From Alphaproteobacteria bacterium (GTDB taxonomy: Bacteria > Pseudomonadota > Alphaproteobacteria > GCA-2731375): a DNA stretch of 64,000 nucleotides. The stretch covers positions 6,711,573 through 6,775,572 of the forward strand of contig CBDDPY010000002.1 of assembly GCA_965232515.1 (NCBI GenBank), written 5' to 3'. The notes beneath the pieces were generated by a model. It was not told the DNA's origin. It saw only the letters and a program-made list of their open reading frames with translations, and searched no databases. Position numbers and translations under genes: made by a program. Shown here piece after piece: positions 2,874-54,104 of the stretch (positions are counted from its first letter, which is position 1; the number at the start of each line of letters is the position of its first letter).

Positions 2874-3177
2874 GTCCTGGCGCAGGCCAGATGGAACGGT
2901 CAGCTGGGCGGTCGGCTCGGCCGGCGCGACGGGGGGCTGGGCGAGGGCCGGCACCGGTTAGATCCCGGACCCGCCTGATGTTGATGCCGGCATATCGGAC
3001 CGATGGACCGCTACGACCGTGCCGTTGGGCGTACGCGAAGCGACGCCGTATGGACATGCCTTACGCATGCGTTAATTTTGCGCCGTCTATGCTTAACAAA
3101 CGTTTACCGACCGCCTGCCCCCGGGGGCAGGCGCCGGCGGTTGTCGCGACGGCGTCCGGCGCTATATAAGGCGCGCA

Positions 3178-4304
3178 TGGAACGGATCGATCTCGATGGT
3201 CTCCAGAGAGGGGCGCGGGTTGTCGTGGCCATGTCCGGCGGCGTCGACTCGTCGGTCTGCGCCGCGCTTTGCCATGAGGCCGGCTATGACGTCATCGGCA
3301 TCACGCTGCAGCTCTACGACCATGGCCAGGCGGCGCGGCGCCCCGGCGCCTGCTGCGCCGGCGTCGACATCCATGACGCCAAGCGGGTGGCCGAGCGCCT
3401 CGGCATTGCCCACTATGTGCTCGACTACGAGGATCGTTTTCGCCAGTCGGTGATGGACGATTTTGCCGACAGCTATCTTGCCGGCGAGACGCCGGTGCCT
3501 TGCATCCGCTGCAATCAGACCGTGAAGTTCCGGGATCTCCTGGGCACCGCCCGCGAGCTTGGCGCCGAAGCGCTGGTCACCGGCCACTATGTCCGCCGGG
3601 TGGCGGGCGAGGCCGGCCCCGAACTGCACCGCGCCGTCGATGCGGCGAAGGACCAGAGCTATTTCCTGTTCGCCACGACCGCGGCCGAGCTTGATTTCCT
3701 GCGCTTGCCCCTGGGCGAAATCGCCGACAAGGCGGCGACCCGGGCGGTCGCCCATCGCCATGGCCTGCCGGTGGCCGAGAAGGCGGACAGCCAGGACATC
3801 TGCTTCGTACCGCAGGGCCGCTATGCCGAGGTGATCGAGCGCCTGCGTCCGGGCGCGGCCGATCCCGGCGAGATCGTCGACCAGGCGGGCCGGGTGCTCG
3901 GCCGGCATGACGGTATCATCCATTTCACCATCGGCCAGCGCCGCGGCCTGGGCCTCAGCATGCCCGAACCGCTCTACGTGCTGCGGCTGGAGCCCGAAAC
4001 CCGGCGTGTCGTGGTCGGCCCACGGGCGGCATTGCTGGAGCGGCGCATCGTCCTGAAGGACGTGAACTGGCTGGATAGCGCGGCCGTGCCGCCGGCCGGC
4101 CGGGCTGTCGGCGCCCGCATCCGCTCGACCCGGCCGCCGGTCCCGGCCACCGTCTTCGCGGCGCTGGATGGGCATATCGAGGTCAGCCTGCACGAGCCTG
4201 AAGCCGGTGTGGCGCCCGGTCAGGCCTGCGTGCTCTACGACGGCAGCCGGGTTTTGGGCGGCGGCTGGATCGCCCGCGCCGAGGGCAACCGCGCCGCCGC
4301 TTGA
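3178..4304 (+). CDS. mnmA: tRNA-specific 2-thiouridylase MnmA
   Basis: [15 protein letters not shown]-loop, then DYEDRF and CIRCN motifs. 375 aa starting at MERIDLDG. Confidence 0.9.
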
Positions 4305-4367: not shown

Positions 4368-4444
4368 GGCGGGGTAGCTCAGTTGGTTAGAGCAGCGGAA
4401 TCATAATCCGCGTGTCGGGGGTTCAAGTCCCTCCCCCGCTACCA
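4368..4444 (+). tRNA. tRNA-Met (anticodon CAT); tRNA-Ile2(LAU) not excluded
   Basis: Cloverleaf read by hand. Acceptor stem GGCGGGG/CCCCGCU, D-arm GCTC-AGTTGGTTA-GAGC, anticodon stem GCGGA/TCCGC with loop AUCAUAA, T-arm GGGGG-TTCAAGT-CCCTC, A73 and encoded CCA. Confidence 0.85.
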
Positions 4445-4568: not shown

Positions 4569-4931
4569 ATGATCCGGTCGGGTGCGGGGATTGCCGTCGT
4601 TCTGATGCTCTTGCTGTCGGCCGATGGCAAGGTCGGCGCCTCGGCCCCGCGATTCTCCAACCTGCAGGTCTTGCCGGAAGACGCGACGCCGGCCGAGGTG
4701 TTCCAGGTCATGAAGCTGATGACCCGCGCGCTCGGGACCGAGTGCCGTGTCTGTCACCGCACCGGCGCGCGCGATTTTGCCGCGGACGCGGAGCCCCTCA
4801 AGGTCACGACGCGCGGCATGATGTGGCTGGAGTCGACGGTTCGCGGCGGCATTGACTGGCGCGAACCGCCCGCCGACCTGTGTGTCGACTGCCATCGAGG
4901 TCGGCTGCGGCCGCCGCCCGGCGGCGGTTGA
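4569..4931 (+). CDS. Small secreted dihaem c-type cytochrome (photosynthetic-reaction-centre cytochrome c subunit-like domain)
   Basis: Signal peptide MIRSGAGIAVVLMLLL. Motif FSNLQVLP...LGTECRVCH and a second CVDCH. Confidence 0.6.
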   Translation: MIRSGAGIAVVLMLLLSADGKVGASAPRFSNLQVLPEDATPAEVFQVMKLMTRALGTECRVCHRTGARDFAADAEPLKVTTRGMMWLESTVRGGIDWREPPADLCVDCHRGRLRPPPGGG

Positions 4932-5032
4932 GCGGTCGGCCGCAAAGGCGAGGCCGCGTATTCTCGTAATTTCGCGAAAGGGCTATGATCGGGGACGGTT
5001 GACAATGGTCGAACCGCCGGAGAAGCGAAACA

Positions 5033-8000
5033 TTGTCTCGCGCGCGACTGGCCCCGGTGCTGCTGCTTCTTGCGCTCTTTTCGTCGAGCCACGAGGCGCG
5101 GACGGCCGACACGCAGGATGGATACGCAGGCTCCAAGGCCTGCGAAGGCTGCCACACCTACATTTACAACCAGTGGCGGGGCACACGGCATAGCTTCTCC
5201 GTCAAGACGCCGGCCGAGGCGCGATCCGCCGGTTTCCCGTTGCCCCGGCCACGCCAAGGCGGCGGCGAGCTAACGATCCGGTCGTGGGACGACGTCGCTT
5301 ACGTCATCGGCGGGCGGCAACGTATCGCCTATGCGGATGCCGCGGGTCGCGTTCAGGACACCAGCTATCACCATCGGACCGGGGGTTGGGATGCGTTTCC
5401 AACCAAGCCCATGTCCGTGTGCGGCCCGTGCCACTACACCGGCTTCGGCGTGGGCCCCGAACATTCGGACAATCCGGTGCTGCCCGGCCGCTGGGTCGAG
5501 CGAAACATCGGCTGCGAAGCCTGCCACGGACCGGGCGCGCGCCACGTCGAGAGCCTGGAGAAGGCGGACATCCAGGCCGACCCGTCGTCACGCGTCTGCG
5601 GTCAATGCCACACGGCGGTGGGCAAGGTCCTGCCCAAGGGCGAGCTGCATGCGACCCACGATCTGGTGCAGGGCTGGAACCAGGACCCGCACGTCACCGG
5701 CGTCCGCTGGAATTCCGACAACGCCTTCTGCGCGCGCTGTCACGCGCCCTATCAGGGCCACATTCCGGAGGCTGGCGAGGGTGCGGCGCGTCGGGTCTTT
5801 TCCGAGACGAAGCGGAACATCACCTGCATCGGCTGTCACAATCCGCATCAACTGACCAATGCGAACTATGGGCCTGACAACGTCTTGCTGACGCCGCCGC
5901 TGCCAATCCCGTGGCATACCCACGAAGGCCATGATGCGGACTTTACGACCACCGACTACAAGGCCTGGGACAGCACCGATGAGGTCTGCGAACGCTGCCA
6001 CCGGGGGGCGGATCGGGTCGATCTGGATCACGCCAACGCGACGTGCCAGGACTGCCACAATCAGTTCAACCGCAACCATGGACGCGAGTCCCGACGGCTC
6101 CACGACGCCAACCACCCCGCGTTGAGCTGCCGTGGCTGCCATGAGGATGCCGACCACTTAATGGCGGTGCTTTACCGGGATCCCGACTTCCTGGCGCCAA
6201 AGCACATCCACAACCTGAGGACATTGCCGGCGCGGGCGCGGACGAAGTATGGCTTCCGCTACGCGGAGCTGATCCGGCCAGGCGCGCTGGCAACGAACGT
6301 CTCGATCCAGGAAACAGCGGCCGCGGTCGCAGAGCAGAACCCGAACGGCGATTTGCCGAACCAGCCAACCGTCATTCGGCAGACCGGATCTGCTCACCAC
6401 GAGGCGCTGCGCGAACTGCTGTCAGCGCCGGTCCACCGCCGCCTCGCCGGGGACGAGACCGTGTCGGCGAAGCAACGGGCTCTATCCGAGGCGCCCGACT
6501 CTGTCGGTCGCTATCTCGACCTGGCTGATGTCTACGCGGGGCAGGGTGAATTCTCGGCGGCACGGGAGATTATCGCGCACGGGCTGGCGCTCGACGCGAG
6601 CCGGCTCCTGCTGGAGCTGCCCTTCGGCCGAGACGCGGACAGGTCCGACATGGGCGAGACGGCCGAGGCCAGGGCTCGCACATTATTGCCGCCGTCCGCG
6701 TTGCCGGGCGAGGAGGCCCTTCGAGCTTGGCTTCAGGGCTATCTGGAAATGACCGAAGGACGCTTCGCGGACGCCGCCCGGACGTTGGCGTCCGTGCAAG
6801 CGGGTTCGACCGAGCGCGTGTCGTTGCGATTTCATCTGGCGCTGGCCGAGTTGGGGCAAGGCCGCTATCGCGAGGCGCTCGTGGCAATCAAGGCGAACCT
6901 TCGTGCGAACCCTGAGCACCGGGCATCGAAAGTCGGGCTCGGATTCGTGCACCTCGCTCGGCGCCGATCCAAGCCCGCGATCGAGGCGCTGACGCGGGCG
7001 ATCGCCGACCATCCCGGTGACGCCGCGGCGCTCTATATTCTGGGGCGCGCTTATCTGACTGGCCGGGATATGGCCAACGCCGTTCAGGCCTATCGGGCCG
7101 CGGTCGATGCCGATCCCAATTTTCTCTTGGCCCGGTTCGACATGGCGCGGGCCTATGGCTTCGGCGGACGACCCGATGCGGCGACGCGCGTTTATCGAGA
7201 AATCGTCCGCCGCCAGCCTGGTCTGTTTCAGGCCCGGTTCGAGCTTGCCAATGTCTTGAAGCTGCTGAGCGACAGGCTGGCCTATCAGCTGCAGTCCGCG
7301 CGCGAGACCAGCCCGCCCACGGACATCAGCGTCGCGCGCTGGCGGGACCGCCTGTCCGGTTGGGAGCGGGAAGTCGAGAAGTTCCGGGATCTGGCGCTCT
7401 CCGAGCTGGCGATCGCGGCCAGTGTCAGACCCTCGGCGATCGAGGTGATCCGGCAGGTGGCCGAGATCTACCGGCAGTCTGGGCGCCTGTCCGAGGCCGA
7501 GCGGTTCTACCGGTGGCTGGCACGCCGCCAGCCCGAATGGTGGCTCTACCGGTATCGGCTCGGTGTCGTTCAAATCAGGCAGGGCCGCGACGCCGAGGCG
7601 ATCGAGACGCTGACACGGGCGCTGACGATGGCGCCGACGGACGGTGACACCTTTCTTGCGCTCGGCCTGGCGCAGATCCGCGCCGGCCGACTTGACGCCG
7701 CCATCGACACCTTCGAGCGCGGCAGGATCTACGAACCGTTCAATCCGGCTCTCTACACCAATCTGGGCGCGGCATATGCACGCCGCGGCAATCTCGAACA
7801 CGCGAGCGCCGCGCTCGAACGTTCGCTGGAGCTCGCCAGCTTTCCGCTGCCGCGTGTGCACCTGACACATACGAATCTCGCCATCGTGCGTATCAGGCAG
7901 GGCCGCCCCGAGGCTGCGGCTCAGTCGCTGAGACGCGCCCTGCACAGTTTTTCGCAGTACGCCTATGCCCGCGAGCTGCTCGACAGGCTGAATGCGGGTG

Positions 8001-8098
8001 AGCATCTGCACGAAGCTGACTCGCCGCCCGACGTCGTCTTCAACGATCTGCTCGAGCGCTTCGGCGAGGTCACGACGGTCGCGTTCGCCAATGACTAG
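5033..8098 (+). CDS. Nine-haem c-type cytochrome fused to a C-terminal TPR-repeat domain
   Basis: TTG start with GGAGA RBS and a signal peptide. Nine CxxCH motifs in the first roughly 370 aa: CEGCH, CGPCH, CEACH, CGQCH, CARCH, CIGCH, CERCH, CQDCH, CRGCH. Residues roughly 480-1000 are TPR-like A/L/R-rich helical repeats. Confidence 0.7.
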   Translation: MSRARLAPVLLLLALFSSSHEARTADTQDGYAGSKACEGCHTYIYNQWRGTRHSFSVKTPAEARSAGFPLPRPRQGGGELTIRSWDDVAYVIGGRQRIAYADAAGRVQDTSYHHRTGGWDAFPTKPMSVCGPCHYTGFGVGPEHSDNPVLPGRWVERNIGCEACHGPGARHVESLEKADIQADPSSRVCGQCHTAVGKVLPKGELHATHDLVQGWNQDPHVTGVRWNSDNAFCARCHAPYQGHIPEAGEGAARRVFSETKRNITCIGCHNPHQLTNANYGPDNVLLTPPLPIPWHTHEGHDADFTTTDYKAWDSTDEVCERCHRGADRVDLDHANATCQDCHNQFNRNHGRESRRLHDANHPALSCRGCHEDADHLMAVLYRDPDFLAPKHIHNLRTLPARARTKYGFRYAELIRPGALATNVSIQETAAAVAEQNPNGDLPNQPTVIRQTGSAHHEALRELLSAPVHRRLAGDETVSAKQRALSEAPDSVGRYLDLADVYAGQGEFSAAREIIAHGLALDASRLLLELPFGRDADRSDMGETAEARARTLLPPSALPGEEALRAWLQGYLEMTEGRFADAARTLASVQAGSTERVSLRFHLALAELGQGRYREALVAIKANLRANPEHRASKVGLGFVHLARRRSKPAIEALTRAIADHPGDAAALYILGRAYLTGRDMANAVQAYRAAVDADPNFLLARFDMARAYGFGGRPDAATRVYREIVRRQPGLFQARFELANVLKLLSDRLAYQLQSARETSPPTDISVARWRDRLSGWEREVEKFRDLALSELAIAASVRPSAIEVIRQVAEIYRQSGRLSEAERFYRWLARRQPEWWLYRYRLGVVQIRQGRDAEAIETLTRALTMAPTDGDTFLALGLAQIRAGRLDAAIDTFERGRIYEPFNPALYTNLGAAYARRGNLEHASAALERSLELASFPLPRVHLTHTNLAIVRIRQGRPEAAAQSLRRALHSFSQYAYARELLDRLNAGEHLHEADSPPDVVFNDLLERFGEVTTVAFAND

Positions 8099-9470
8099 TC
8101 GGGTGTTAGGCGTCGTCGCCGGGCTGTTGGGCCTGCTGGCCATTGTTGAAGGCGCGATGCTGTGGCAGCTGCATCAAGAACACGCCACGGCCAGTATCGA
8201 ACTTCGCGCCAGCAATGCCGGCCTGGAACTCGGTCCGGAGCATGGACGGGTCTTTGTTCATCCGGCGGAGCGGACCGACCAACTCGTCGCCGAGGGCGCC
8301 CTTGAAGAGGAAATCGCGGTTGCGCCCGGGACCTACGACGTCCGCGTGCTGTTTACCCGCTCAAAGGACAACCAGAGCATTTGGCTCGACGACGTCGTGC
8401 TCGAGCGAGGTGCGCGGGCGACGCACACCGTCGAGTTCGGCTCCGGCGAGCTTAGCGTCGAGGCCACGGTCGGGAGCGGCGCCGGCGAGGTCGTGGTCTA
8501 TGTCTTCGAGAGTGGCGACCAGGACAGGATCATTACGTCGATGCAACCGGGCCAACCGGTTTTGATTGCCCCCGGCACATACGATGTGCGGATCGTGCTC
8601 ACCGAAGCCGCCGAGGAGCGGGCCGTCCGCTGGCGAAAGGGCGTGCCGGTTCAAACCGGACTGCAAACCAGGATCAACGTCCGCTTCCAACAGGGCGCGT
8701 TGCTCGTCGCTGCGCTGAACGGGCAGCAACCGTTGCCCGACGGCGCCGTGGAGCTGACCGTGTTCCGCGCCGGCGACGCTCAACGCGAGGTGGTCGCCTT
8801 CGGCCTCGCCGGATCGCCACTGCATCTTGCCGCCGGGCGCTACGACATCAAGGCGACGTTTTCGGCATCGAACGACAAGCCGGTCATCTGGCTCGAGGAT
8901 CTGGCGATCACGGAGGAAGAAGCGCTGGAGAAGTCCATTGCGTTTACATCCGGAACCGCCGTCGTCAGCGCGGAGATGAAGCACGGCGCGACGCTCGACG
9001 ACTTCCAGGCCTACGTTTACTACTACAGGGTCGGGGACCACCAGGAGCCGGTTGCCTATGCCCCCGCGCCCGAACCGGTGGTGCTGGCGAGCGGCCGTTA
9101 TGACGTGCGCGTCAACTTCCACCGCTCGCACGACCGGCCCGACCTTTGGATTCGGGATCTGTTCGTGCCGCCAGGCGGGCGCGTCTCACGAACCGCGGTC
9201 TTCGCATCCGGCATGCTGCTTGTGCGGGCCTACGATGCGGCCGGGATCGAACTGGTTGGCGACAACATATTCGTGCGAGTCCATGCGGCGGGCGAGGCCA
9301 GTCGGCCCATTGCGGTCGCGCGCAGCGGCGAGATTCTCGTTCTCTCCGACGGCGTCTATGACGTTGTCGCCGAGGACACCCGAAGCCCCGGAACCGAGCG
9401 CCGCATCGATCGCGTCGCTGTGACGCCGGGGAAACTGTCGGAGCACACCCTGACGTTTGGGCGGCCGTGA
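8091..9470 (+). CDS. Membrane-anchored protein with five tandem roughly 80-90-aa beta-rich repeats
   Basis: N-terminal TM helix VLGVVAGLLGLLAIVEG. The module APGTYDVRV...IWLDD/LWIRDL recurs five times. ATG overlaps the stop of the upstream cytochrome gene. Confidence 0.55.
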   Translation: MTSRVLGVVAGLLGLLAIVEGAMLWQLHQEHATASIELRASNAGLELGPEHGRVFVHPAERTDQLVAEGALEEEIAVAPGTYDVRVLFTRSKDNQSIWLDDVVLERGARATHTVEFGSGELSVEATVGSGAGEVVVYVFESGDQDRIITSMQPGQPVLIAPGTYDVRIVLTEAAEERAVRWRKGVPVQTGLQTRINVRFQQGALLVAALNGQQPLPDGAVELTVFRAGDAQREVVAFGLAGSPLHLAAGRYDIKATFSASNDKPVIWLEDLAITEEEALEKSIAFTSGTAVVSAEMKHGATLDDFQAYVYYYRVGDHQEPVAYAPAPEPVVLASGRYDVRVNFHRSHDRPDLWIRDLFVPPGGRVSRTAVFASGMLLVRAYDAAGIELVGDNIFVRVHAAGEASRPIAVARSGEILVLSDGVYDVVAEDTRSPGTERRIDRVAVTPGKLSEHTLTFGRP

Positions 9471-9650
9471 GCCCGATATCGCGCCGTCAGGTCGCGTCGG
9501 TTAAGGCGCGCAATGGCTGATCACGACGACAGGCTGGAGCGCATCCCAAGCTGCTAAATTTGCGCCGGACCGGCAAAATCACTTACCATAATGCCGGTCG
9601 ATGGTGTCCGGCCGTGTCGGACGACCTTGTCTGCTTGAGGAGGGACCACG

Positions 9651-10400
9651 ATGGGCATCCTGCAGGGCAAAGCGTTGGTGGTGCTGGGCGCGCTGGTCGC
9701 GATAGGCGTTCTGGCCAGTCCCACGACAGGCCACGCGCTGGTCGAGACAAAAAAGCAGCCGTTCGTCAAAAACTCCGCGTTCATTGACTTCAAAAAGCTC
9801 GGCACGATCAGGAAGCTCAGCCTGGAGATCCAGAGTCTGGAACGAGTCGAGTTCAAACCGTTTGACAAGCCCAAGGGAAAGCCGAAGAAGAAGGGGCCTG
9901 TCTTCAAGTTCAGCGAGCCCATCCAGGGACCGACCGGCGGGCCGGTCGTCGACATTGAGCTGGTCTCACTGTCGCTTGTCAGCACAAGTCCGGTGTTGCT
10001 GGACGGCCAGACCGGGCACCTCGTGCTAACGCATGATCCCGCCCGGTCGAGTGGCGGACCGGGCATCATCAGGTTCGACGACAAATCCAAAAAGACCGGC
10101 AAGTTCGACGCGAAGTTCGAAAAGCTCCTGAAGCTGAAGCTGAAGGACGACAAGAACCAAAAGACCAAGGTCGACAAGGGCAAGATCGGGCTGCCAGTTA
10201 AATTCGACGGCGTCGCCTTCAGACAGCAGTCGCCGATCACGGTCACTGAGGCGTTCTGTATTGGCCCTCAGGATAGTTCGATCGCCGAATTCTGCCTGCG
10301 TCCGATACCCGAACCGCCGACACTGCTGCTGCTTGGTCTGGGTCTGACCGGGCTTGTCGCGGCATTCGCATTCGGGCGGCGCCGGGAACCGGCCGCATAA
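9651..10400 (+). CDS. PEP-CTERM sorting-domain protein, lysine-rich
   Basis: Signal peptide. C-terminus PIPEPPTLLLLGLGLTGLVAAFAFGRRR, i.e. a PEP motif, a TM helix and an Arg cluster. Central K-rich low-complexity region. GAGGAGGG RBS. Confidence 0.7.
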   Translation: MGILQGKALVVLGALVAIGVLASPTTGHALVETKKQPFVKNSAFIDFKKLGTIRKLSLEIQSLERVEFKPFDKPKGKPKKKGPVFKFSEPIQGPTGGPVVDIELVSLSLVSTSPVLLDGQTGHLVLTHDPARSSGGPGIIRFDDKSKKTGKFDAKFEKLLKLKLKDDKNQKTKVDKGKIGLPVKFDGVAFRQQSPITVTEAFCIGPQDSSIAEFCLRPIPEPPTLLLLGLGLTGLVAAFAFGRRREPAA

Positions 10401-10454: not shown

Positions 10455-10823
10455 CTACCGCGCAGCGAGTTGTTCGACGGCTTTGACGATGTCGGCGTTG
10501 GCGAAGGGTTTGGTGATGAAGAGATCGGCGCCGCAGTCGAGGGCGGTTTCGCGGTCTTCGCGCTGGCCCTTGGCGGTCAGCACCAGCACCGGCAGGGTTT
10601 CCGCCCGGCGGTCGGCGCGCAGGCGGCGCAGGACTTCATAGCCGTCCAGTTCCGGCAGCATGACGTCAAGGATCATCACGTCGGGCGTGTCCGCCAGCGC
10701 GGCGTTCAAAGCCTTGCGCCCATCGGTTTCGACCGCCACGTCGAACCCCGCCCGTTCCAACAGAAAGGTCAGGGGTTCGACGATGTTCGGCTCGTCCTCC
10801 GCAAGCAGGACGCGCTTTGTCAT
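10455..10823 (-). CDS. Single-domain response regulator (CheY-like receiver)
   Basis: MTKRVLLAEDEPNI...DVMILDVMLPELDG...LVLTAKG. Carries the phospho-acceptor Asp and the conserved T and K. Confidence 0.8.
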   Translation of the reverse strand: MTKRVLLAEDEPNIVEPLTFLLERAGFDVAVETDGRKALNAALADTPDVMILDVMLPELDGYEVLRRLRADRRAETLPVLVLTAKGQREDRETALDCGADLFITKPFANADIVKAVEQLAAR

Positions 10824-10962
10824 GGTTAAGAATGTCCTCCCGTTGACGAACCGTCTTGCGTGAACGTCGGCAACGATTAGACGGTACCAGGGGCGTCTCT
10901 GCAATCGGGAATTGCCGGCAGAGGGGCAGGGCGGGTTGAATTCGGCCGTCCTGCGCGTCTAG

Positions 10963-12375
10963 CTACTCGGCCAATGGGTCTTCGACGCGGTGTCGGCAGC
11001 TCCGGCGCGGGCAGAGGCGGCAGCTTGGGCCGACCTCCTCGACCGGCGCCGAGGGTTCCGGGGCATAAACCGTTTGCTGCGCGTCGTCCTCGGTCATGGC
11101 CAGCATGTCGGTCACGTAGTGGCGCGGCTGGCCGAAGCCGGTCGCGCCGGCATTGCGGGCGCGGCCGACGAAGACGAAACGCGCGCCGGTCGGGAACTGC
11201 ACGCGCTGGCGCACGACGGTCTCGGGCGACTGCTGCGCGCAATAGAGCACCCAGAGCGGGCAGGCGGCGGCGTATCGCGGCACGGCGAGCCCGTCCAGAC
11301 CGAGCATTTCGATGATCGAGCCCGCCGCGTTGGCCCGGTAGTAGCCGAAGCGCGGCCGGCCATCGGCGCGCGGCAACGCGGTCAGCCGATGACAGACGGC
11401 GGTAACCTCGGCGGCAAATGCCGCCGCCAGCGCCTCGATATCGAAGCGCAGCTCGACAGCACGTTCCTTGAACGCCGCCATGGGCATCAGGATGGCGTCG
11501 ACCGCATAGTCCGATAAGGCCCGCCGCGCGCGTTCGCGGGCAGCCGCGGTTTCGATCTGCGGCTGGCGCTCGGTGATCTCGTCGATCAGGTCGCGCAGCC
11601 GTTCGTCCGTCAATGCGCGGGCCGCTGCGCGTTGGGCGGCGGCGTGTCCGCCGTTGATTTCCGGCGCGAGCGTGGCGGCGGCTGTTTCGATCTCGTTGAA
11701 ATGATTCTCGCGTGCGTCGAACAGAGCTTCCACCTCGTCCAGCGGCGTGAGCGTCCGGTCCGGCTCGTCGGCCTTGTCGAGATAGGCCGCCAGCGCCTCG
11801 CCGACATCCGACAGCGCCCGGCTTTCCTCGTGGATGATGCGGTGGAACCGGTCGCGCCGGTCGGCCGGCGCGTCGGGAAACTCGGTCAGGATTTCGGCGG
11901 CCGAGCGGACCGCCGCGATCCGTGTCAGCATACGATGCACGGTCTCGCCCAGGAACGGATCGTTCGACAGGCGGTCGGTCAGCGTCTGCGCCAGCGCCGT
12001 CGCTTGGCGTTCCGAGCGGGCGAGCGCGGCCAGCCCCCGGGCCCAGCCGGGAAACCGTCCGATCAGCTCGCCCGTGCGCTGGTCCTCGATGCCGAGGGTG
12101 CCGAGCGAGGGGAGGTGGGCGATCTCGGTGAGCGTCTCGAGCAGGCGGCGTTCGGCCGCGCCGTCGAGATCGTCCAGTTCCAGGTCCAGGGCCTCGGCGG
12201 TCTTGCGCAGCAGGGTGCCCGCGATCCGCCGTTTGTTCAGCTCGATCAGATTCAGATAGGAGGCGGAGATGCCGATCCGTTCCGCGAGCGCGACCTGGGT
12301 GATGCCGATCTCGCGCCGGCGCTGGCGGATGCGGGTGCCGAGGATCGAACGATCCATCTCGGAAAGCTGTTTCAT
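10963..12375 (-). CDS. XRE-family HTH regulator with large C-terminal domain (RamB/ScfR-like)
   Basis: N-terminal LGTRIRQRRREIGITQVALAERIGISASYLNLIE HTH. 470 aa, the size of RamB-type regulators. Confidence 0.65.
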   Translation of the reverse strand: MKQLSEMDRSILGTRIRQRRREIGITQVALAERIGISASYLNLIELNKRRIAGTLLRKTAEALDLELDDLDGAAERRLLETLTEIAHLPSLGTLGIEDQRTGELIGRFPGWARGLAALARSERQATALAQTLTDRLSNDPFLGETVHRMLTRIAAVRSAAEILTEFPDAPADRRDRFHRIIHEESRALSDVGEALAAYLDKADEPDRTLTPLDEVEALFDARENHFNEIETAAATLAPEINGGHAAAQRAAARALTDERLRDLIDEITERQPQIETAAARERARRALSDYAVDAILMPMAAFKERAVELRFDIEALAAAFAAEVTAVCHRLTALPRADGRPRFGYYRANAAGSIIEMLGLDGLAVPRYAAACPLWVLYCAQQSPETVVRQRVQFPTGARFVFVGRARNAGATGFGQPRHYVTDMLAMTEDDAQQTVYAPEPSAPVEEVGPSCRLCPRRSCRHRVEDPLAE

Positions 12376-12604: not shown

Positions 12605-13945
12605 ATGAGCAAGTGGGATATCAGTCGTCGCGGTCTGCTGAAGAGCTCCGCCGCGATGGGCGTCGGTCTCGCCGCGCCGACCATCTTTACCAGCAGCGCC
12701 TGGGCCACGAGCTATACCAACGAGCCGAAGGGCGCGACCGTCACGCTGGGCTTCAACGTGCCCCAGACCGGCGCCTATGCCGATGAGGGCGCCGACGAGC
12801 TGCGTGCGTATCAGCTCGCCGTCGAGCACATCAACGGCGAGGGCGACGGCGGCATGCTCAACACCTTTTCGTCGAAGGCACTGACGGGCAAGGGCATCAA
12901 TGGCAAGAAAGTCGAATACGTTACCGGCGACACCCAGACCAAGTCCGACGCCGCCCGCGCCAGCGCCAAGCGCATGATCGAGAAGGACGGCGCCATCATG
13001 ATCACCGGCGGCTCGTCGTCGGGCGTGGCGATCGCGGTACAGGGCCTGTGCCAGGACGCCGGCGTCATCTTCATGGCCGGCCTGACCCACTCGAACGACA
13101 CCACCGGCAAGGACAAGCGCGCCAACGGCTTCCGCCACTTCTTCAATACCGAGATGTCGGGCGCGGCGCTCGGTCCGGTGCTGAAGAATGCCTTCGGGTC
13201 CGACCGCGTCGCCTATCACCTGACGGCCGACTACACCTGGGGTTGGAGCCAGGAAGGCTCGATCATCAAGTATTCCGAGGAGCTCGGCTGGCAGACCTCC
13301 GCCGCGGTGCGCACGCCGCTCGGCGCCGGCGATTTCTCGCAGTACATCACGCCGGTCCTGAATTCGGGCGCCGACGTGCTGGTCCTGAATCACTACGGCC
13401 GCGACATGGTCAACTCGCTGACCCAGGCCGTGCAGTTCGGCCTGCGCGACAAGCAGGTCAACGGCAAGGACTTCGCCATCGTCGTGCCGCTCTACAGCCG
13501 CCTGATGGCACAGGGCGCCGGCGAGAACGTGAAGGGCATCTTCGGCTCGACCAACTGGCACTGGTCGCTGCAGGACGAGGGCTCGAAGGCCTTCGTGAAG
13601 TCGTTCGGCCAGAAGTACGGCTTCCCGCCGAGCCAGGCCGCACACACCTGCTACTGCCAGGCCATCCTCTATGCCGACGCCTGCGAGCGCGCCGGCACCT
13701 TCCGGCCGTCCGCTGTCGGCAAGCAGCTGGAAGGCTTCAAGTTCGACGGCCTTGGCAACGGTCCGACCGAATACCGCGCCGAGGACCACCAGTGCTTCAA
13801 GGACGTGCTGGTGGTGAAGGGCAAGGAGAACCCGTCCTCGAAGTTCGACGTGCTCGAAGTCGTCGAGGTCACGCCGCGTGCGCAGGTGGAGTATCCCGCC
13901 TCGATGCTGGGCGGCGAGCTGGGGCCGTACAACGACGGCGCCTGA
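12605..13945 (+). CDS. ABC transporter substrate-binding protein (HAAT/Liv-type, periplasmic binding protein type 1) with Tat signal
   Basis: SRRGLLKSSAAMGVGLAAP twin-arginine signal. Liv/amide/urea-type binding protein architecture. AAGGGAG RBS. Confidence 0.8.
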   Translation: MSKWDISRRGLLKSSAAMGVGLAAPTIFTSSAWATSYTNEPKGATVTLGFNVPQTGAYADEGADELRAYQLAVEHINGEGDGGMLNTFSSKALTGKGINGKKVEYVTGDTQTKSDAARASAKRMIEKDGAIMITGGSSSGVAIAVQGLCQDAGVIFMAGLTHSNDTTGKDKRANGFRHFFNTEMSGAALGPVLKNAFGSDRVAYHLTADYTWGWSQEGSIIKYSEELGWQTSAAVRTPLGAGDFSQYITPVLNSGADVLVLNHYGRDMVNSLTQAVQFGLRDKQVNGKDFAIVVPLYSRLMAQGAGENVKGIFGSTNWHWSLQDEGSKAFVKSFGQKYGFPPSQAAHTCYCQAILYADACERAGTFRPSAVGKQLEGFKFDGLGNGPTEYRAEDHQCFKDVLVVKGKENPSSKFDVLEVVEVTPRAQVEYPASMLGGELGPYNDGA

Positions 13946-14023
13946 TGTTCCTGACCTGACCAACTTCCGGTCGTCCCCGAAACAAACACCGGGGACGACC
14001 GGCCCCTCGGGGGAGCCCGAACC

Positions 14024-15052
14024 ATGGATGCGATATTCCTGCAGATCCTGAATGGCCTGGACAAGGGCGGCGCCTACGCCCTGATCGCGTTGGGTCTGAC
14101 AATCATTTTCGGCACGCTCGGCGTCGTGAACTTCGCGCACGGCGCGCTGTTCATGCTCGGCGCGTTTTGCGCGGTTTCGGTGAAAGCTTTGTTGAGCCTC
14201 GAGAAGGTTACGCTCGATCCCGAAAAGGTGACGGCTTGGGGCTCGCCGATGGAGATCCGCACGCCTTATGTCGAGGCGTGGCTCGGCGATTTCGGCAGCA
14301 CCCTGCTGAATTACTCCGTGCCGGTCTCGATCCTGATCGCCATTCCCGTGATGCTCTTGATCGGCATCGCCATGGAGCGCGGGCTCATTCGGTTTTTCTA
14401 TAAACGGCCGCACGCCGAACAGATCCTGGTGACCTTCGGCCTGGCGATCGTCATTCAGGAGATCGTCAAGGGGCAGTTCGGCGCCAACCCGATCCCGCAG
14501 CCGGCGCCCGATGCCGCCAAGGGCATGGTCGACTTCGGCGTCGCGCTTGGCTTCCAGGCCGGCAACGTGGTCTATCCGGCCTGGCGGCTGATCTATTTCC
14601 TGTTTTCGGTCTTGGTGATCGGCGCCGTCTTCGCGTTTCTGAGGTTCACGACGTTCGGCATGGTGGTCCGCGCTGGCATGGCCGACCGAGAGACGGTGGG
14701 TCTGCTCGGCATCGACATTGACCGGCGCTTCACCATCGTGTTCGGCATTGCCGCCGTGGTCGCCGGCCTGGCGGGCGTGATGTACACGCCGATCCTCAGC
14801 CCCGACTACCACATGGGCATGGATTTCCTGGTCTTGAGCTTCGTCGTCGTCGTGGTCGGCGGCATGGGCTCGCTCGGCGGCGCCGTCGCCGCCGGCTTCA
14901 TGCTCGGCATCCTGCAGAGCTTCGCCTCGATGAACGAGGTCAAGAACATCCTGCCCGGCATCGATCAGATCATCATCTACCTGATCGCCGTCGTCATTCT
15001 GCTGGTGCGCCCCCGTGGCCTGATGGGCCGCAAGGGCGTCATGGAGCACTGA
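14024..15052 (+). CDS. Branched-chain amino acid-type ABC permease (LivH/UrtB-like)
   Basis: Polytopic. Motifs LNGLDKGGAYALIALGLTIIFG and NFAHGALFMLGAF. Confidence 0.85.
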   Translation: MDAIFLQILNGLDKGGAYALIALGLTIIFGTLGVVNFAHGALFMLGAFCAVSVKALLSLEKVTLDPEKVTAWGSPMEIRTPYVEAWLGDFGSTLLNYSVPVSILIAIPVMLLIGIAMERGLIRFFYKRPHAEQILVTFGLAIVIQEIVKGQFGANPIPQPAPDAAKGMVDFGVALGFQAGNVVYPAWRLIYFLFSVLVIGAVFAFLRFTTFGMVVRAGMADRETVGLLGIDIDRRFTIVFGIAAVVAGLAGVMYTPILSPDYHMGMDFLVLSFVVVVVGGMGSLGGAVAAGFMLGILQSFASMNEVKNILPGIDQIIIYLIAVVILLVRPRGLMGRKGVMEH

Positions 15053-15055
15053 GCC

Positions 15056-16207
15056 ATGACCCAAGCCATCAAGAAACAGAGCGACCTGATCCTGCTGGTC
15101 TGCTTCGCCGCCGCGGTGCTGGCCGGCCCGGTCATCCTGGCGCCGATCGGCGCGGGCTATCCCGACCTGCTGCAGAAGTTCGCGATCTTCGGCATCTTCG
15201 CGCTGGGATTCAATATCCTCTTCGGCCTCACCGGCTACCTGTCCTTCGGCCACGCCGCGTTCCTGGGCGTCGGCTCCTACACGGCGGTGTGGACGTTCAA
15301 GCTGCTCAGCATGAACCCGATCCCGGCGATCATCTTCGCCACGTTGATCGGCGGTCTGTTCGCCGCCCTGATCGGCTTCATCTCGTTGCGGCGCTCGGGC
15401 ATCTACTTCTCGATCCTGACGCTCGCCTTCGCGCAGATGAGCTACAACCTCGCCTATTCGGTGCTGACGCCGATCACCAACGGCGAGACCGGCCTGCAGC
15501 TGGCGCAGTCCGACCCGCGGGTGCTGGACGTCGCCTTCGGGCGCGATTACGGCGCCGTGCTGCCGTCGTCCGACCTGTTCGGCCTCACCATGACCGGCTA
15601 TCCCGGCTTTTACTTCTGCGCGATGATGCTGATCCTCTGCTTCTTCATCTCGATGCGCATCTTCCGTTCGCCGTTCGGCATGATGCTACGCGCGGTGAAG
15701 TCGAACCAGAACCGGATGAACTACACCGGGCTCAACACCCGGCCCTACGCGATGGCGGCGTTCGTGATTTCAGGCATGTATGCGGGCCTGGCCGGCGGCC
15801 TGATGGCGGTGACCGACCCGCTGGCGGGCGCCGAGCGCATGCAGTGGACGGCGTCCGGCGAGGTCGTGCTGATGACCATTCTTGGCGGCGCCGGCACCTT
15901 GCTCGGCCCCGTCATCGGCGCGGGCGCGATCAAGTACTTCGAGAACATCTTCTCCGCCTTCAACGAGGGCATCCTGATGCAGGCTTTCGACTTCCTGCCG
16001 GAAGGGTTGCAGCACCTCATGGTGTCGCTGACGTCACTGTTCGTCGGCGAGGGCTGGCACCTGACGCTGGGCGCCTTGTTCATGATCATCGTGATCTTCC
16101 TGCCGGGCGGCCTGATGGAAGGCTTCAACCGCCTGCGGGGCTGGATCGCGGGCCGCTTCGGCGGTGGCGGCGGCGCGCCCGAATTGTCGCCGGCGACGGC
16201 AGGCTAG
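15056..16207 (+). CDS. Branched-chain amino acid-type ABC permease (LivM/UrtC-like)
   Basis: Polytopic. [16 protein letters not shown] motif. Confidence 0.85.
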
Positions 16208-16218
16208 GGGAGGTCGAT

Positions 16219-16970
16219 ATGAACATTCTCTCGGTCCAGAACGTCAACAAGCATTTTGGCGGCCTGCAGGCGCTGAACGAGGTGAACCTCGAGGTCGAGG
16301 CCGGCACGGTGCACGCCATCATCGGCCCGAACGGGGCAGGCAAGTCGACGTTGCTTAACTGCTTCGTCGGCCGGCTCGAGCCGGACACCGGCTCGGTCAT
16401 GTTCGACGGCCAGTCGCTGCTGGGCATCAAGCCGCACGAGATCAACCAGACCGGCGTCGCCCGCGTGTTTCAGACGCCAGAGATCTTTGGCGACCTGACC
16501 CTGCTGGACAATGTGATGATTCCCGCCTTCGCCAAGCGGGACGGCGCCTTCACCATGAACGCCTGGGGGTCCGTCGCGGGCGAGGCCGACATCTATTCCA
16601 AGGCGATGACCATGCTGTCCGACGTCGGCCTCGCCAATCAGGCGCACGACATCGCCGGTCAGTTGTCGCGTGGCGACAAGCGGCGGCTGGAACTGGCCAT
16701 GTGCCTGGTGCAGGACCCGAAGCTCTTGCTGCTCGACGAGCCGACGGCCGGCATGGCCCGGGCCGACACCAACAACACCATCGACCTGATGAAGCGGATC
16801 GCCGAGAGCGGCGTCACCATGGTGGTGATCGAGCACGACATGCACGTGGTGTTTTCGCTGGCCGACAAGATCAGCGTCCTGGCGCAGGGTACCGTGATCG
16901 CCGAGGGCCTGCCGGACAGCATCAAAGGAGATCCGCGCGTCCAGGAAGCCTATCTCGGAGGAGCCCACCT

Positions 16971-16974
<4 letters not shown>
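16219..16974 (+). CDS. ABC transporter ATP-binding protein (LivG/UrtD-like)
   Basis: Walker A GPNGAGKST, signature LSRGDKRRLELA, Walker B LLLLDEP. Confidence 0.85.
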
Positions 16975-17801
<827 letters not shown>

Positions 17802-18662: not shown

Positions 18663-19922
18663 ATGAGGGCAAGCATCGTGTCTGGCGATATCGACGTCAG
18701 CAACACCATGAAGTTGCTGAATGATGCCGAGTTGATTTTTCCCGAGGCAATTTCATTCTTCGCCGGCCGGCCGCCAGACAGATTTATCGAAACCGCGCGC
18801 GTGCCCGCGTGGCTCGCGAACTTCGTCGACAAGAACAAGACGATCGATATCGGTGCCGGCGACGACGCCTGGCTGACGATCGGTCAATACGCCGCGACAA
18901 ACGGCATCATGCTGGAGGCGGCAACGCGCTATCTCGCGAACGATGCCGACATCCGCGTCGCGCCCGAGGCCTGCATGATCACAAACGGGGCGCAGGAGGC
19001 GGTGACCATTTGCCTTGCGGGACTGGTCGGGCAAAATCGCTGCGTGCTGGCGGCCGATCCGACCTATATCGGCCTGACTGGCGCCGCCGACGTCCTCGAC
19101 ATCGCTGTCGAGGTCGTGCCCGACGACCTTGAGTTCGTCGACCGGGTCGAGCATGCGCTCGTCGACCGCGGGCCCGATCAGCTGCCGGTCGGCGCGCTTT
19201 ACCTGGTGCCGGACTTCGCCAACCCGTCGAGCCGCCATCTCTCGGTCGCCGAGCGCCGCCGCCTGATCGAGCTCGCAGACCGCCACGACTTTTATATCCT
19301 CGAAGATGTGGCCTACCGCTGGTTCGCCTACGACGGCCGCTCGACGCCGCCGATGAAGTCGCTCGACGACGTGGGCCGTGTCATTTACATCGAGACCTTC
19401 GCCAAGACCTTTCTGCCGGGCGTGCGGCTGGCCATCATGGTGGCCGACCGTGCCGTCGAAGGCGGCACTCTGGCACAGCAGCTGGCGGCCATCAAAAGCT
19501 ATGTCTCGGTGAATACGTCGCCGTTGAACCAGGCGATCTTGGCCGGGTTCCTGGACGAACAGAACTACTCGCTTGCCGATTGGATGGCGCCGCGCCGCGC
19601 CTCGCTGCAGTCCCGGCGCGACGCCTTCGACCGCGCCTTGACGGCGCATTTCGGCACCGGCGCCAATGCCATCGCGCGCTGGGAGCTGCCGCTCGGCGGC
19701 TTCTTCTTCCGGCTGCAGATCGGCGCGAGCTTCGGCATCGACGATTTTCTGCGTTGCGCCCGCGATGGCGGCGTCATCGCCATGCCCATGTGCTGCTTCT
19801 CGACCGCGGGCGGGCATGCCGACGAGATCAGGCTGTCGTTCAGCAACAACACGGCCGAGGACATCGCCGAAGGTGTCGCGCGTCTCGCCGCCTTTCTCGA
19901 AAACCACAATCCGGCGACTTGA
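18663..19922 (+). CDS. PLP-dependent aminotransferase class I/II family protein
   Basis: Fold-type I layout with IETFAKTF (Schiff-base lysine) and FYILEDVAYRWF. Confidence 0.65.
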   Translation: MRASIVSGDIDVSNTMKLLNDAELIFPEAISFFAGRPPDRFIETARVPAWLANFVDKNKTIDIGAGDDAWLTIGQYAATNGIMLEAATRYLANDADIRVAPEACMITNGAQEAVTICLAGLVGQNRCVLAADPTYIGLTGAADVLDIAVEVVPDDLEFVDRVEHALVDRGPDQLPVGALYLVPDFANPSSRHLSVAERRRLIELADRHDFYILEDVAYRWFAYDGRSTPPMKSLDDVGRVIYIETFAKTFLPGVRLAIMVADRAVEGGTLAQQLAAIKSYVSVNTSPLNQAILAGFLDEQNYSLADWMAPRRASLQSRRDAFDRALTAHFGTGANAIARWELPLGGFFFRLQIGASFGIDDFLRCARDGGVIAMPMCCFSTAGGHADEIRLSFSNNTAEDIAEGVARLAAFLENHNPAT

Positions 19923-33409: not shown

Positions 33410-33425
33410 GCGCGTAACCGGGCCG

Positions 33426-34508
33426 ATGCCGCAGTACGACGTCATCCTGGAGCATGTCGACAAGACCTTCGACGGTGACGTCCGAGCGGTGATCGACTTC
33501 AACGCTGAGATCGAGCAGGGCGAGTTCGTCGCCATGCTCGGTCCCAGCGGCTGCGGCAAGACCACGACACTGCGCATGATCGGCGGCCTGGAGGAGGTGA
33601 CGGCCGGCAAGATTTTCATCGCCGGCCAGGACGTGACCGATCTGCCGCCGTCGCATCGCGACACGGCGATGATGTTTCAGAGCTTCGCGCTGTTCCCGCA
33701 CCGCACCGTGTTCCAGAACGTCGAGTTCAGCTTGAAGATGAAAGGCATCGCGCCGGACGAGCGGGCGCGTCATGTCTGGGAAATGTTGGAGATGGTCGGC
33801 CTCGCCGATTTCTCCAGTCGGCGTCCGAGCGACCTCAGCGGCGGTCAGCAGCAACGCGTGGCCTTGGCCCGCGCGCTGATCAGCCGGCCGACGGTGCTCT
33901 TGCTGGACGAGCCGCTGGGCGCGCTCGACTACAACCTGCGTCAGACCATGATGGTCGAGCTGAAGAAGATCCAGCGCGAGACCGGCATCACCTTCATCAT
34001 GGTCACGCACTCGCAGCAGGAAGCCATGTCGATGGCCGACAAGGTCATCGTCATGAGCGACTCCGTGATCCAGCAGATCGGCACCTCGCGTGAAATCCAT
34101 GAGTATCCGCGCACCAAATTCGTCGCCGAGTTCATTGGCAACAACAACCTGTTCCCCGGCGTGATCAAGTCGCGGAGCGGCTCGATCATCTTCGTCGAGT
34201 TCAACGACCATCTGCTCTATGTGAAAGCGCCCGAGGAATTGCGCGATGTCGAGGTGGGCCGGGAGATCTATTTCTCCGTCCGCGCCGACCTCATGCATGC
34301 CGGCGACCACCCCGACATGGCGAACCGGATCGAGGGCAGCTACGTCACCACAGAGTTCATGGGCACGCTGGAAACGGATGTCTTCGAGGTCGCGCCCGGC
34401 ATCTACGTGCATGTCGAGCAGCACCGCAAGGTAACCGACCATGTCTACAGCATGGGCGACCGCGAAACGATCTGCTGGGCGGCCGAGGCCGGCGTCATTC
34501 TGGAATAA
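33426..34508 (+). CDS. ABC transporter ATP-binding protein (PotA/spermidine-putrescine type)
   Basis: GPSGCGKTT Walker A, LSGGQQQRVALARAL signature, LLLDEPLGALD, and a C-terminal TOBE-like domain. Confidence 0.85.
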   Translation: MPQYDVILEHVDKTFDGDVRAVIDFNAEIEQGEFVAMLGPSGCGKTTTLRMIGGLEEVTAGKIFIAGQDVTDLPPSHRDTAMMFQSFALFPHRTVFQNVEFSLKMKGIAPDERARHVWEMLEMVGLADFSSRRPSDLSGGQQQRVALARALISRPTVLLLDEPLGALDYNLRQTMMVELKKIQRETGITFIMVTHSQQEAMSMADKVIVMSDSVIQQIGTSREIHEYPRTKFVAEFIGNNNLFPGVIKSRSGSIIFVEFNDHLLYVKAPEELRDVEVGREIYFSVRADLMHAGDHPDMANRIEGSYVTTEFMGTLETDVFEVAPGIYVHVEQHRKVTDHVYSMGDRETICWAAEAGVILE

Positions 34509-52048: not shown

Positions 52049-52075
52049 CTGGCACTGTCTTTGTTAGAGTGCCAG
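52049..52075 (+). promoter_or_regulatory. CIRCE (HrcA operator) inverted repeat
   Basis: CTGGCACTG-tctttgtta-GAGTGCCAG against the consensus TTAGCACTC-N9-GAGTGCTAA. Located between the promoter and groES. Confidence 0.6.
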
Positions 52076-52136
52076 GCCGCGTTTCCCCATATTTCAGCGC
52101 GCGGAATGGCCGTGCGCGAGACAGGAGGTTCAGCTG

Positions 52137-52454
52137 ATGAAATTCAGGCCGTTGCACGACCGGGTCGTAGTTCGCCGCGTCGAGGAAGACGAGCGGACGG
52201 CCGGCGGCATTATCGTCCCCGACACCGCAAAAGAAAAGCCGATGCAGGGCGAGGTTGTTTCCGTCGGCCCCGGCGCCCGTAACGAGAAGGGCGAGATCGT
52301 GGCGTTGGATGTCAAGGCCGGCGACCGTGTGCTGTTCGGCAAGTGGTCGGGCACCGAGGTCAAGATGGACGGCGAAGAGCTGTTGATCATGAAGGAATCC
52401 GATGTGATGGCCATTATCGAGGTCAAGAAGGCCTCGAAGAAGAAGGCCGCCTAG
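52137..52454 (+). CDS. groES: Co-chaperonin GroES
   Basis: [14 protein letters not shown]...[13 protein letters not shown]. Confidence 0.95.

Positions 52455-54104
<1,650 letters not shown>

Follow-up and report, generated by a model that had tools for sequence, protein, structure and literature searches.

A nonahaem cytochrome–TPR fusion and an anchored five-domain protein as the conserved core of a candidate cell-envelope redox module

Introduction

By way of multihaem cytochromes, electrons leave the cell and reach minerals, electrodes or other organisms acting as partners, the known routes in diderm bacteria being soluble periplasmic shuttles and porin–cytochrome complexes. Metagenomes contain many multihaem clusters that have yet to be characterised; the subject of this article is a cluster of four genes, g1 to g4, found in a 64-kb stretch of DNA (contig CBDDPY010000002.1, positions 6,711,573 to 6,775,572) whose entire length is referred to as the window and in which positions are counted from the first nucleotide (nt). 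At the centre of the cluster are g2, encoding an exported nine-haem (nonahaem) cytochrome fused to a tetratricopeptide repeat (TPR) scaffold, and g3, encoding a single-pass protein with five domains that would be extracytoplasmic; as judged from sequence comparisons, the module is most like the clustered multihaem electron-transfer systems and is a member of none of them.

The described proteins closest to the haem domain of g2 are OcwA from Thermincola potens and OmhA from Carboxydothermus ferrireducens. OcwA, a terminal reductase located on the surface of a Gram-positive bacterium, carries nine haems and combines a c554-like module with an NrfA-like one and a three-helix bundle (PMC6703420); it groups with OmhA, MccA and c554 (PMC9250108) and in vitro is able to reduce nitrite as well as hydroxylamine (PMC6703420, PMC9250108). 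The homologous group of c554, MccA, OcwA, OmhA and NrfA is made up largely of enzymes that possess a five-coordinate haem (PMC6703420, PMC9250108), and the descriptions of OcwA and OmhA that were consulted mention no TPR domain (PMC6703420, PMC9250108).

The MtrCAB, Pcc and Ext conduits have in common with the present module the clustering of exported multihaem cytochromes with non-haem partners; the porin–cytochrome conduits, however, comprise a beta-barrel porin and a lipoprotein cytochrome, neither of which occurs in the window or in the related loci, the partners in the present module being a TPR scaffold and a stalk that would be anchored in the inner membrane. No publication on this cluster was found in the literature searched, in keeping with the preliminary description of this DNA, whose author did not recognise in it a described system; the literature on Tenderiales Uet, on transposon sequencing (Tn-seq) of Geobacter and on peat multihaem cytochromes was considered and proved unrelated to the cluster.

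The g1–g4 locus and its conserved core

Both the listing of open reading frames (ORFs) and gene calling based on the GC content of third codon positions (GC3) indicate that g1–g4 are four consecutive plus-strand genes, all of them encoding exported proteins, as had been stated in the preliminary description:

4569–4931, plus strand: g1, exported dihaem c-type cytochrome of 120 amino acids (aa)
5033–8098, plus strand: g2, exported nonahaem cytochrome–TPR fusion, a single ORF of 1021 codons
8091–9470, plus strand: g3, single-pass five-repeat protein whose ATG overlaps the stop codon of g2
9651–10400, plus strand: g4, Lys-rich PEP-CTERM protein, preceded by a 180-nt spacer after g3 and having its own ribosome-binding site

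Synteny points to a module, with a strict pairing of g2 with g3. An exhaustive HMMER search of 1.84 billion proteins with the haem domain of g2 returned ~22 orthologous representatives (at least 48% identical), beyond which the scores fall sharply to unrelated multihaem architectures. The full-length orthologues measure 924–1078 aa, and the fusion is intact in at least eight independent contigs, among them those of the related loci L004, L006, L007, L008, L009, L012 and L018, and in 10 database representatives. Adjacency of g2 and g3 was found in 13 of the 13 loci having sequence upstream of g3, the most divergent member (40% identity) included, and the tight junction between the two genes recurs in the orthologous loci, usually with overlapping or abutting codons. 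In the window the overlap (8091–8098, plus strand) reads ATGACTAG, with the ATG of g3 at 8091 and the TAG of g2 at 8096–8098, an arrangement to be read as translational coupling.

The association with g1 is looser. Among the 11 loci, window included, that hold the start of g2 and sequence upstream of it, g1 lies beside g2 in eight, being on the same strand as g2 in the window, L006, L007 and L012 and divergent in L002, L003, L004 and L018; the remaining flanking genes vary from locus to locus. On this comparative evidence the core of the module is g2 plus g3, which g1 often joins as a third component and a Lys-rich exosortase substrate recurrently as a fourth, g4 itself belonging to only part of the family. 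The initial view of the four genes as one module therefore stands for g2 and g3 and needs qualification for g1, which is sometimes divergent or absent, and for g4. On the other hand, the three observations by which that view could have been overturned went the other way: related genomes have the genes together, independent assemblies contain an unbroken fusion, and nine CxxCH sites are present throughout.

Other fusions of cytochromes with TPR or HEAT domains, unrelated to g2, exist (P0021–P0027; L016), so that the fusion, termed unusual in the preliminary description, is not unique as an architecture. Since the distant cytochrome–TPR fusion P0025 has no g3-like neighbour, the g2–g3 pairing is specific to this orthologous group, and the combination of nine haems, TPR and g3 is specific to this small family. 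The module is rare yet spread over distinct hosts: the labels comprise an Alphaproteobacteria-like host (the window, as judged by its GroEL), a Gammaproteobacteria metagenome-assembled genome (MAG) and a Terriglobia MAG, and the loci differ in GC content (52–67%).

In three loci the g2 frame is broken. In L001 (10346–11671; L005 lies on the same contig, from the Terriglobia MAG) the orthologue is cut into parts of 680 and 309 aa by a DDE transposase that has entered its TPR-coding half; in L002 (8001–10926) and L003 (8001–11219), on ~10x long-read contigs, it appears as two genes through frame changes, which are probably sequencing errors and possibly the mark of pseudogenes.

The haem domain of g2

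The product of g2 can be divided as follows:

5033–5104, plus strand (aa 1–24): Sec-type signal peptide, recognised by inspection
5105–6232, plus strand (aa 25–400): haem domain with nine CxxCH
6233–6391, plus strand (aa 401–453): linker, poorly conserved (~0.25) and predicted with low confidence
6392–8002, plus strand (aa 454–990): TPR-like superhelix, from Pfam TPR models, AlphaFold and Foldseek
8003–8095, plus strand (aa 991–1021): acidic C-terminal tail, conserved

Translation starts at the TTG at 5033, 7 nt downstream of a GGAGAAG ribosome-binding site, and the ensuing frame is uninterrupted over 1021 aa and endowed, as initially reported, with nine CxxCH and no more, at aa 37, 130, 161, 189, 233, 265, 319, 338 and 366. 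All 18 Cys of the protein fall within these motifs, and exactly nine motifs with the same spacing are found in the full-length orthologues (11/11); because every Cys is taken up and both number and spacing are kept, the pattern cannot be a product of chance. Eight His outside the motifs are invariant in the orthologues (H53, H171, H206, H209, H220, H272, H333 and H393) and the alignment of the orthologues contains no invariant Met or Lys in the haem domain; with eight invariant distal His for nine haems, one haem is therefore left without an obvious conserved sixth ligand.

The single g2 sequence matches OcwA (6I5B) at 1e-12 and OmhA (6QVM) at 3e-9, and a haem-domain profile built from 11 orthologues matches the same two proteins at 2e-20 (OcwA, residues 12–199) and 2e-17 (OmhA, residues 221–483), with weaker matches to MccA (3.5e-7), MtrA (6r2q_A, 5e-7) and c554 (1e-5). 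The profile alignment with OcwA covers haems 1–4 of g2 and the beta-sheet insertion between haems 1 and 2, that with OmhA reaches haem 6, and no significant alignment was obtained past haem 4 and haem 6, respectively. Strands are indeed predicted by AlphaFold, with low confidence, at aa 88–121, between haems 1 and 2, and the CHGPGxxH motif that follows haem 3 is shared with the c554/MccA branch. The last three haems are matched by the c3 and c7 models of Pfam, and MtrA matches weakly the region of haems 2–9; haem 9 is followed by a conserved segment containing His393, then by the poorly conserved linker and finally by the TPR. These alignments identify haems 1–4 (up to 6) as a module of the OcwA/OmhA/c554 type and the remainder of the haem domain as not homologous to it.

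The likeness to OcwA and OmhA thus resides in export, in the N-terminal c554-like four-haem module with its beta-sheet insertion and, in the case of OcwA, in the number of nine CxxCH. On the other hand, the NrfA-like C-terminal pentahaem module and the three-helix bundle are not detectable in g2; and a counterpart of the His–Met haem 9 of OcwA is argued against by the lack of an invariant Met. With regard to the five-coordinate haems 2 and 5 of OcwA and their distal His–His motifs, g2 has eight invariant non-motif His for its nine haems, a single HH pair (aa 112–113) that varies among the orthologues, and a haem domain modelled with a pLDDT <50. Furthermore, g2 has a TPR domain, which is missing also from the nearest non-orthologous relatives of its haem domain, and its host is a diderm, with different partner genes, whereas those of OcwA and OmhA are Gram-positive. 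The c554/MccA branch of the NrfA–HAO group shares with g2 the packing signature of haems 1–4 but differs by its weaker similarity (1e-5 to 3.5e-7) and its haem number; a CX15CH site and a copper site are absent from g2, and catalytic residues are not identifiable. By analogy with c554 and MccA, it is possible that haem 2 of g2 is five-coordinate.

The TPR half and the tail of g2

More than 10 Pfam TPR models score above their cut-offs in the C-terminal half of g2 (TPR_16 at 2e-32), and AlphaFold predicts aa 454–990 (~530 aa) as a helical-repeat superhelix with a predicted local distance difference test (pLDDT) score >90, database homologues having served for structure prediction. A Foldseek search with the model returned generic TPR superhelices only, among them that of O-GlcNAc transferase at 3e-15. 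The presence of a TPR scaffold, proposed in the preliminary description, is thereby substantiated, its extent being reduced from the C-terminal two thirds to about half of the protein. Judging from the model, the TPR half is a generic scaffold for the docking of peptides or proteins. It is basic (isoelectric point, pI, 9.7; net charge +10), whereas the tail that follows is acidic (pI 4.25) and, with a conservation of 0.63 over aa 1001–1021 vs ~0.25 in the linker, represents a candidate docking peptide.

The anchored protein g3

The features of g3 are:

8103–8171, plus strand (aa 5–27): anchor helix, N-terminal, the only hydrophobic helix of the protein
8187–8441, plus strand: D1, beta-sandwich domain
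8442–8690, plus strand: D2, beta-sandwich domain
8691–8948, plus strand: D3, beta-sandwich domain
8949–9206, plus strand: D4, beta-sandwich domain
9207–9467, plus strand: D5, beta-sandwich domain

The initial characterisation of g3 as a single-pass protein whose ATG overlaps the g2 stop and which consists of five beta-rich repeats of about 85 aa agrees with both the sequence and the AlphaFold model. The repeats, 83–87 aa long and with pairwise identities of 23–32%, each contain a GxYD[VI] motif (at aa 80, 162, 249, 335 and 421) and are modelled as five beta-sandwiches (mean pLDDT 91.5) that correspond to the transthyretin-like, seven-stranded sandwich fold. Of 31 g3 homologues, 29 have a hydrophobic helix at the N-terminus and none has a second one; the family comprises ~35 clusters, nearly all of 437–490 aa. 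The ectodomain is acidic (pI 5.1), the net charge of g3 being -18.

Neither Pfam (DUF4397, 24.9 bits vs the required 30.6) nor NCBIfam claims g3, and the search of PDB sequences gave no match; both the g3 family and the body of g4 are devoid of a curated family. The likeness of g3 to Kustc1130 (PDB 6HIF chain Y), a transthyretin-like protein that acts in the assembly of the hydrazine dehydrogenase complex of anammox, is at the level of the fold only, with 18% identity and no sequence-level match; Kustc1130 is soluble and consists of one domain, whereas g3 is composed of five domains and a membrane anchor.

A strand of domain 4 rich in Tyr and His (Y308-x-Y310-x-Y312...H317...Y323; aa 308–323, nt 9012–9059) is invariant in 31 of 31 homologues and could serve for binding, for holding a metal or as a path for electron hopping.

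The dihaem cytochrome g1

The two CxxCH of g1 (C59 and C105; nt 4743–4757 and 4881–4895) account for all four of its Cys, and its N-terminus, judged by eye, is signal-peptide-like. The preliminary description had called g1 a small two-CxxCH cytochrome reminiscent of the reaction-centre cytochrome subunit, and g1 does align to PDB PufC chains (best expectation value, E, 4e-7) over the first two PufC haem-binding units. The score against Pfam CytoC_RC (PF02276), 22.0 bits, is just below the gathering cut-off of 22.4, and g1 remains below the thresholds of NF040706 PufC (21.7 bits vs 150) and of NCBIfam NF033196 “c_type_nonphoto” (54.7 bits vs 70, E 8e-15, almost the entire model being aligned), so that, by the curated threshold, it ranks as a relative of the latter and not as a member.

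Invariant in the five sequences aligned (5/5) are M48, C59, C62, H63, M84, C105, C108 and H109. The two Met, 11 and 21 residues before their respective CxxCH, are probable axial haem ligands, their spacing following the PufC pattern, in which, as in the Blastochloris viridis structure, the Met ligand is borne by a helix. With PufC g1 shares two units, each having a helix-borne Met and a CxxCH; PufC, however, has four haem units, and g1 has no pufLM beside it and lies in a non-photosynthetic neighbourhood. By these likenesses g1 can be defined as a half-PufC dihaem cytochrome.

g4 and the recurrence of exosortase-type neighbours

Two features of g4 qualify it as a putative exosortase substrate:

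aa 1–29, plus strand: signal peptide, from the sequence
10302–10397, plus strand (aa 218–249): PEP-CTERM sorting signal, tail IPEPPTLLLLGLGLTGLVAAFAFGRRR

The definition of g4 as a Lys-rich PEP-CTERM protein, given in the preliminary description, was upheld, the thresholds of both Pfam and TIGRFAM being passed (PF07589, 22.0 vs a cut-off of 20.7; TIGR02595, 20.0 vs 16). The tail has the layout, namely PEP motif, transmembrane segment and basic Arg cluster, that g4 shares, along with the signal peptide, with PEP-CTERM substrates such as the floc protein PepA; its body matches no named PEP-CTERM family. g4 contains 12% Lys, compared with 1.5–2.5% in g1–g3, in which Arg amounts to 8–11%; it carries a conserved Cys pair and a net charge of +13.

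Homologues of g4 (31–56% identical) are located downstream of g3 in L006, L007, L011, L012 and L015, and in L018 a non-homologous VPEP-tailed protein with 14% Lys is encoded just upstream of the module (3324–3974, plus strand). Altogether, g4 homologues or analogous Lys-rich proteins (12–16% Lys) with a PEP-CTERM-type tail adjoin the module in seven loci, and proteins with tails of the PEP-CTERM, VPLPA-CTERM or IPTL-CTERM type, some of them mutually unrelated, flank it in eight. At the genomic level this association with exosortase substrates is real; its recurrence suggests that part of the family is tied to the cell surface or to the matrix. The Lys-rich proteins could be an outer docking partner of the module, clients of its scaffold or the target of its redox chemistry.

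Further tailed ORFs, which are not g4 homologues, are present in L018 (9433–10269, minus strand), L008 (11600–12067, minus; 18753–19535, plus) and L012 (10481–11170, minus). Secreted, moderately Lys-rich proteins having no recognisable sorting tail adjoin the module in L009 (6185–6931, plus), L001 (14091–14954, minus) and L002 (12262–13275, minus), those of L009 and L001 being weakly similar to one another.

Proposed mechanism

If the parts encoded by the cluster are considered together, what could be their common function? The reading that is ranked first, and that is advanced here tentatively, is that of a redox module complete in itself and located in the envelope of a diderm bacterium, in which a periplasmic nine-haem relay is tethered by g3. 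According to this proposal, g3 would be a type II inner-membrane protein extending an acidic five-domain stalk into the periplasm, and its acidic surface would bind the basic TPR superhelix of g2, its conserved tail, or both; indeed, the charges are complementary (g3 -18 vs +10 for the g2 TPR and +13 for g4). The nine-haem chain would thereby be held at a defined periplasmic position instead of diffusing, g1 would act as the small redox partner linking it to the respiratory pool of c-type cytochromes, and the chain would give electrons to, or take them from, an extracytoplasmic substrate. One of the g2 haems, which by analogy with c554, MccA and OcwA would be haem 2, may have an open coordination site for a small molecule. 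In the sub-lineage of the window, the Lys-rich exosortase substrate would be an outer partner, either held by the scaffold or linking the module to the surface or matrix. The electron-transfer or matrix-associated role suggested in the preliminary description is therefore plausible, in view of the OcwA/OmhA-related haem domain and of the recurring sorting-tailed neighbours, as a proposal concerning both function and localisation.

Several observations weigh against the tethered relay. The haem domain of g2 is modelled with a pLDDT <50, from an alignment of 16 sequences and by a method that does not place haems. The transthyretin-like fold of g3 is generic, the match with Kustc1130 being no better than those with carboxypeptidase D or pilin domains, and the N-terminal helix of g3 could be a cleaved signal peptide instead of an anchor. 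g1 is absent within 8–10 kb in L001, L008 and L009, and some half of the loci have no g4-type neighbour. Finally, no ccm, nrf or exosortase gene is found among the scanned ORFs of the 64-kb window, and neither there nor in the related loci is there a quinol dehydrogenase, an outer-membrane porin–cytochrome partner or an obvious substrate-handling gene; the conserved block likewise has no quinol dehydrogenase, porin, ccm or exosortase gene.

A bolder form of the proposal, which must be regarded as doubtful, is that of a porin-independent wire, in which the stalk and the TPR would hold an OcwA-like haem chain across the periplasm and couple it to Lys-rich, exosortase-sorted proteins of the matrix or surface. 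Should this be the case, respiratory electron flow would be wired to the extracellular matrix or would act chemically upon it.

Alternative explanations

Second in rank, and less probable than the tethered relay, is the possibility that g2 is mainly a periplasmic multi-electron reductase or oxidase of a small N, S or O compound (nitrite, hydroxylamine, NO, sulfite etc.), catalysis taking place at a five-coordinate haem of the c554/OcwA-type module with g1 as electron donor or acceptor and with g3 and the TPR serving for positioning only. The homologous group consists largely of enzymes having such a haem, OcwA reducing nitrite and hydroxylamine in vitro (PMC6703420, PMC9250108), and it is to the N-terminal module bearing the open haem 2 in c554, MccA and OcwA that the homology of g2 (2e-20) extends. 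The eight invariant distal His for nine haems, with no invariant Met or Lys, point in the same direction, but the ninth distal ligand could be a variable residue or be supplied by a partner. Moreover, neither the catalytic residues of MccA nor the distal His–His motifs of OcwA were located in g2, in which the sole HH pair varies and which has neither a three-helix bundle nor an NrfA-like C-terminal module, and no conserved substrate-related genes lie nearby. Room for one open-coordination haem is left both by the presence of eight invariant His among nine haems and by the descent of the N-terminal module, whose relatives c554, MccA and OcwA have a five-coordinate haem 2; the present data therefore do not separate a “wire” from an “enzyme”.

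It is unlikely, though worth consideration, that the role of the module is to assemble or modify proteins of the surface or matrix, with the TPR and the g3 stalk handling the Lys-rich exosortase substrates and the haems acting not in respiration but as a redox sensor or as the oxidant or reductant of a modification or cross-link. Sorting-tailed proteins, some unrelated to each other, do flank the module in eight loci, and seven of such proteins have 12–16% Lys where g1–g3 have ~2%. In addition, the best NCBIfam match of the TPR half is PrsT (TIGR02917), the TPR protein of the XrtA/PEP-CTERM system; the score of 137.8 bits is, however, far from the cut-off of 312 and typical of TPR cross-matches, and PrsT is a lipoprotein, whereas the signal peptide of g2 has no Cys and hence no lipoprotein signal. 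Furthermore, the sorting-tailed neighbour is lacking in approximately half of the loci, the conserved block contains no exosortase or polysaccharide gene, and nine haems together with a dedicated dihaem partner exceed what a sensor needs.

NrfG-type TPR proteins help haem attachment in the NrfA and SirA/MccA systems, and the TPR half of g2 might analogously be a built-in maturation chaperone of the CcmI/CycH or NrfG kind, presenting the apocytochrome to a haem lyase and having no role in the finished complex. This appears very improbable: the weak match to Pfam TPR_CcmH_CycH (PF23914), 36.3 bits, falls under the cut-off of 42, the nine sites are all canonical CxxCH for which a special lyase is unneeded, no haem lyase gene is found nearby in the window, and the ~530-aa superhelix, the conserved tail and the strict coupling with g3 would be left unexplained. 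That there is no module at all, the genes being chance neighbours or the fusion an artefact of assembly or annotation, is hardly credible, since the split g2 of L002 and L003 and the interrupted one of L001, which might speak for it, come from low-coverage long-read contigs with frame changes and from one transposase insertion, respectively, and the 13/13 adjacency of g2 and g3, together with the intact fusions in at least eight contigs and 10 database representatives, refutes it.

Neighbouring genes

The cluster is bordered by the following features:

3003–4304, plus strand: mnmA, which with the tRNA-Met forms the upstream border of g1–g4
4368–4444, plus strand: tRNA-Met (CAT), 124 nt 5' of g1, the sole Rfam match
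10455–10904, minus strand: lone receiver-domain protein, downstream of g4
10963–12375, minus strand: HTH_3/M78-like/ScfR-type “XRE” regulator, downstream of g4
12605–17801, plus strand: Liv-type branched-chain amino-acid ABC transporter, divergent to the ScfR-type regulator

The two regulators are indeed located downstream of g4 on the opposite strand, as first described, but a conserved association with the module was not found, and they were rejected as parts of it, not being conserved alongside g2 and g3 in the related loci; L006 alone has a receiver gene, weakly similar (33% identity) and 3.5 kb off. The ScfR-type regulator is excluded also because it is divergent beside the Liv-type transporter, which is more likely to be its target than the cytochrome cluster. 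Scans for promoters and terminators and RNA folding did not rise above background for the three intergenic spacers.

A tRNA-linked genomic island was considered and rejected, the GC content being unremarkable and a tRNA being found in one of ten related loci scanned (L013, ~5 kb from the module). The proximity of the tRNA-Met to g1 and the flanking genes, different in every related locus, give a hint of mobility.

Elsewhere in the window, a groES–groEL pair (52068–54104, plus strand) encodes a GroEL that is 82–84% identical to its closest named relatives, which are Alphaproteobacteria and bear Rhodospirillales and Stellaceae labels, a second GroEL (P0226), 85% identical, being encoded on the same 7.33-Mb contig. 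A region at 30593–34508 (plus strand), with a strongly positive AT skew (~+0.2), encodes a 938-aa protein having an N-terminal SPFH/Band-7 domain and, after this protein, an ABC ATPase.

Significance

The module combines a haem chain, akin to that of the surface reductases of Gram-positive bacteria, with a membrane stalk and a scaffold dedicated to it. Both this architecture and the link with exosortase substrates are unexpected, the functions ascribed to them being those that homology and gene context suggest. The OcwA/OmhA lineage is extended into Proteobacteria and other diderms. If the parts do form a complex, they would represent a new architectural way to position a haem wire in the envelope and might connect redox chemistry to floc or matrix assembly; functions would thereby be given to the g3 repeat family, which has no Pfam family, and to the Lys-rich g4 family.

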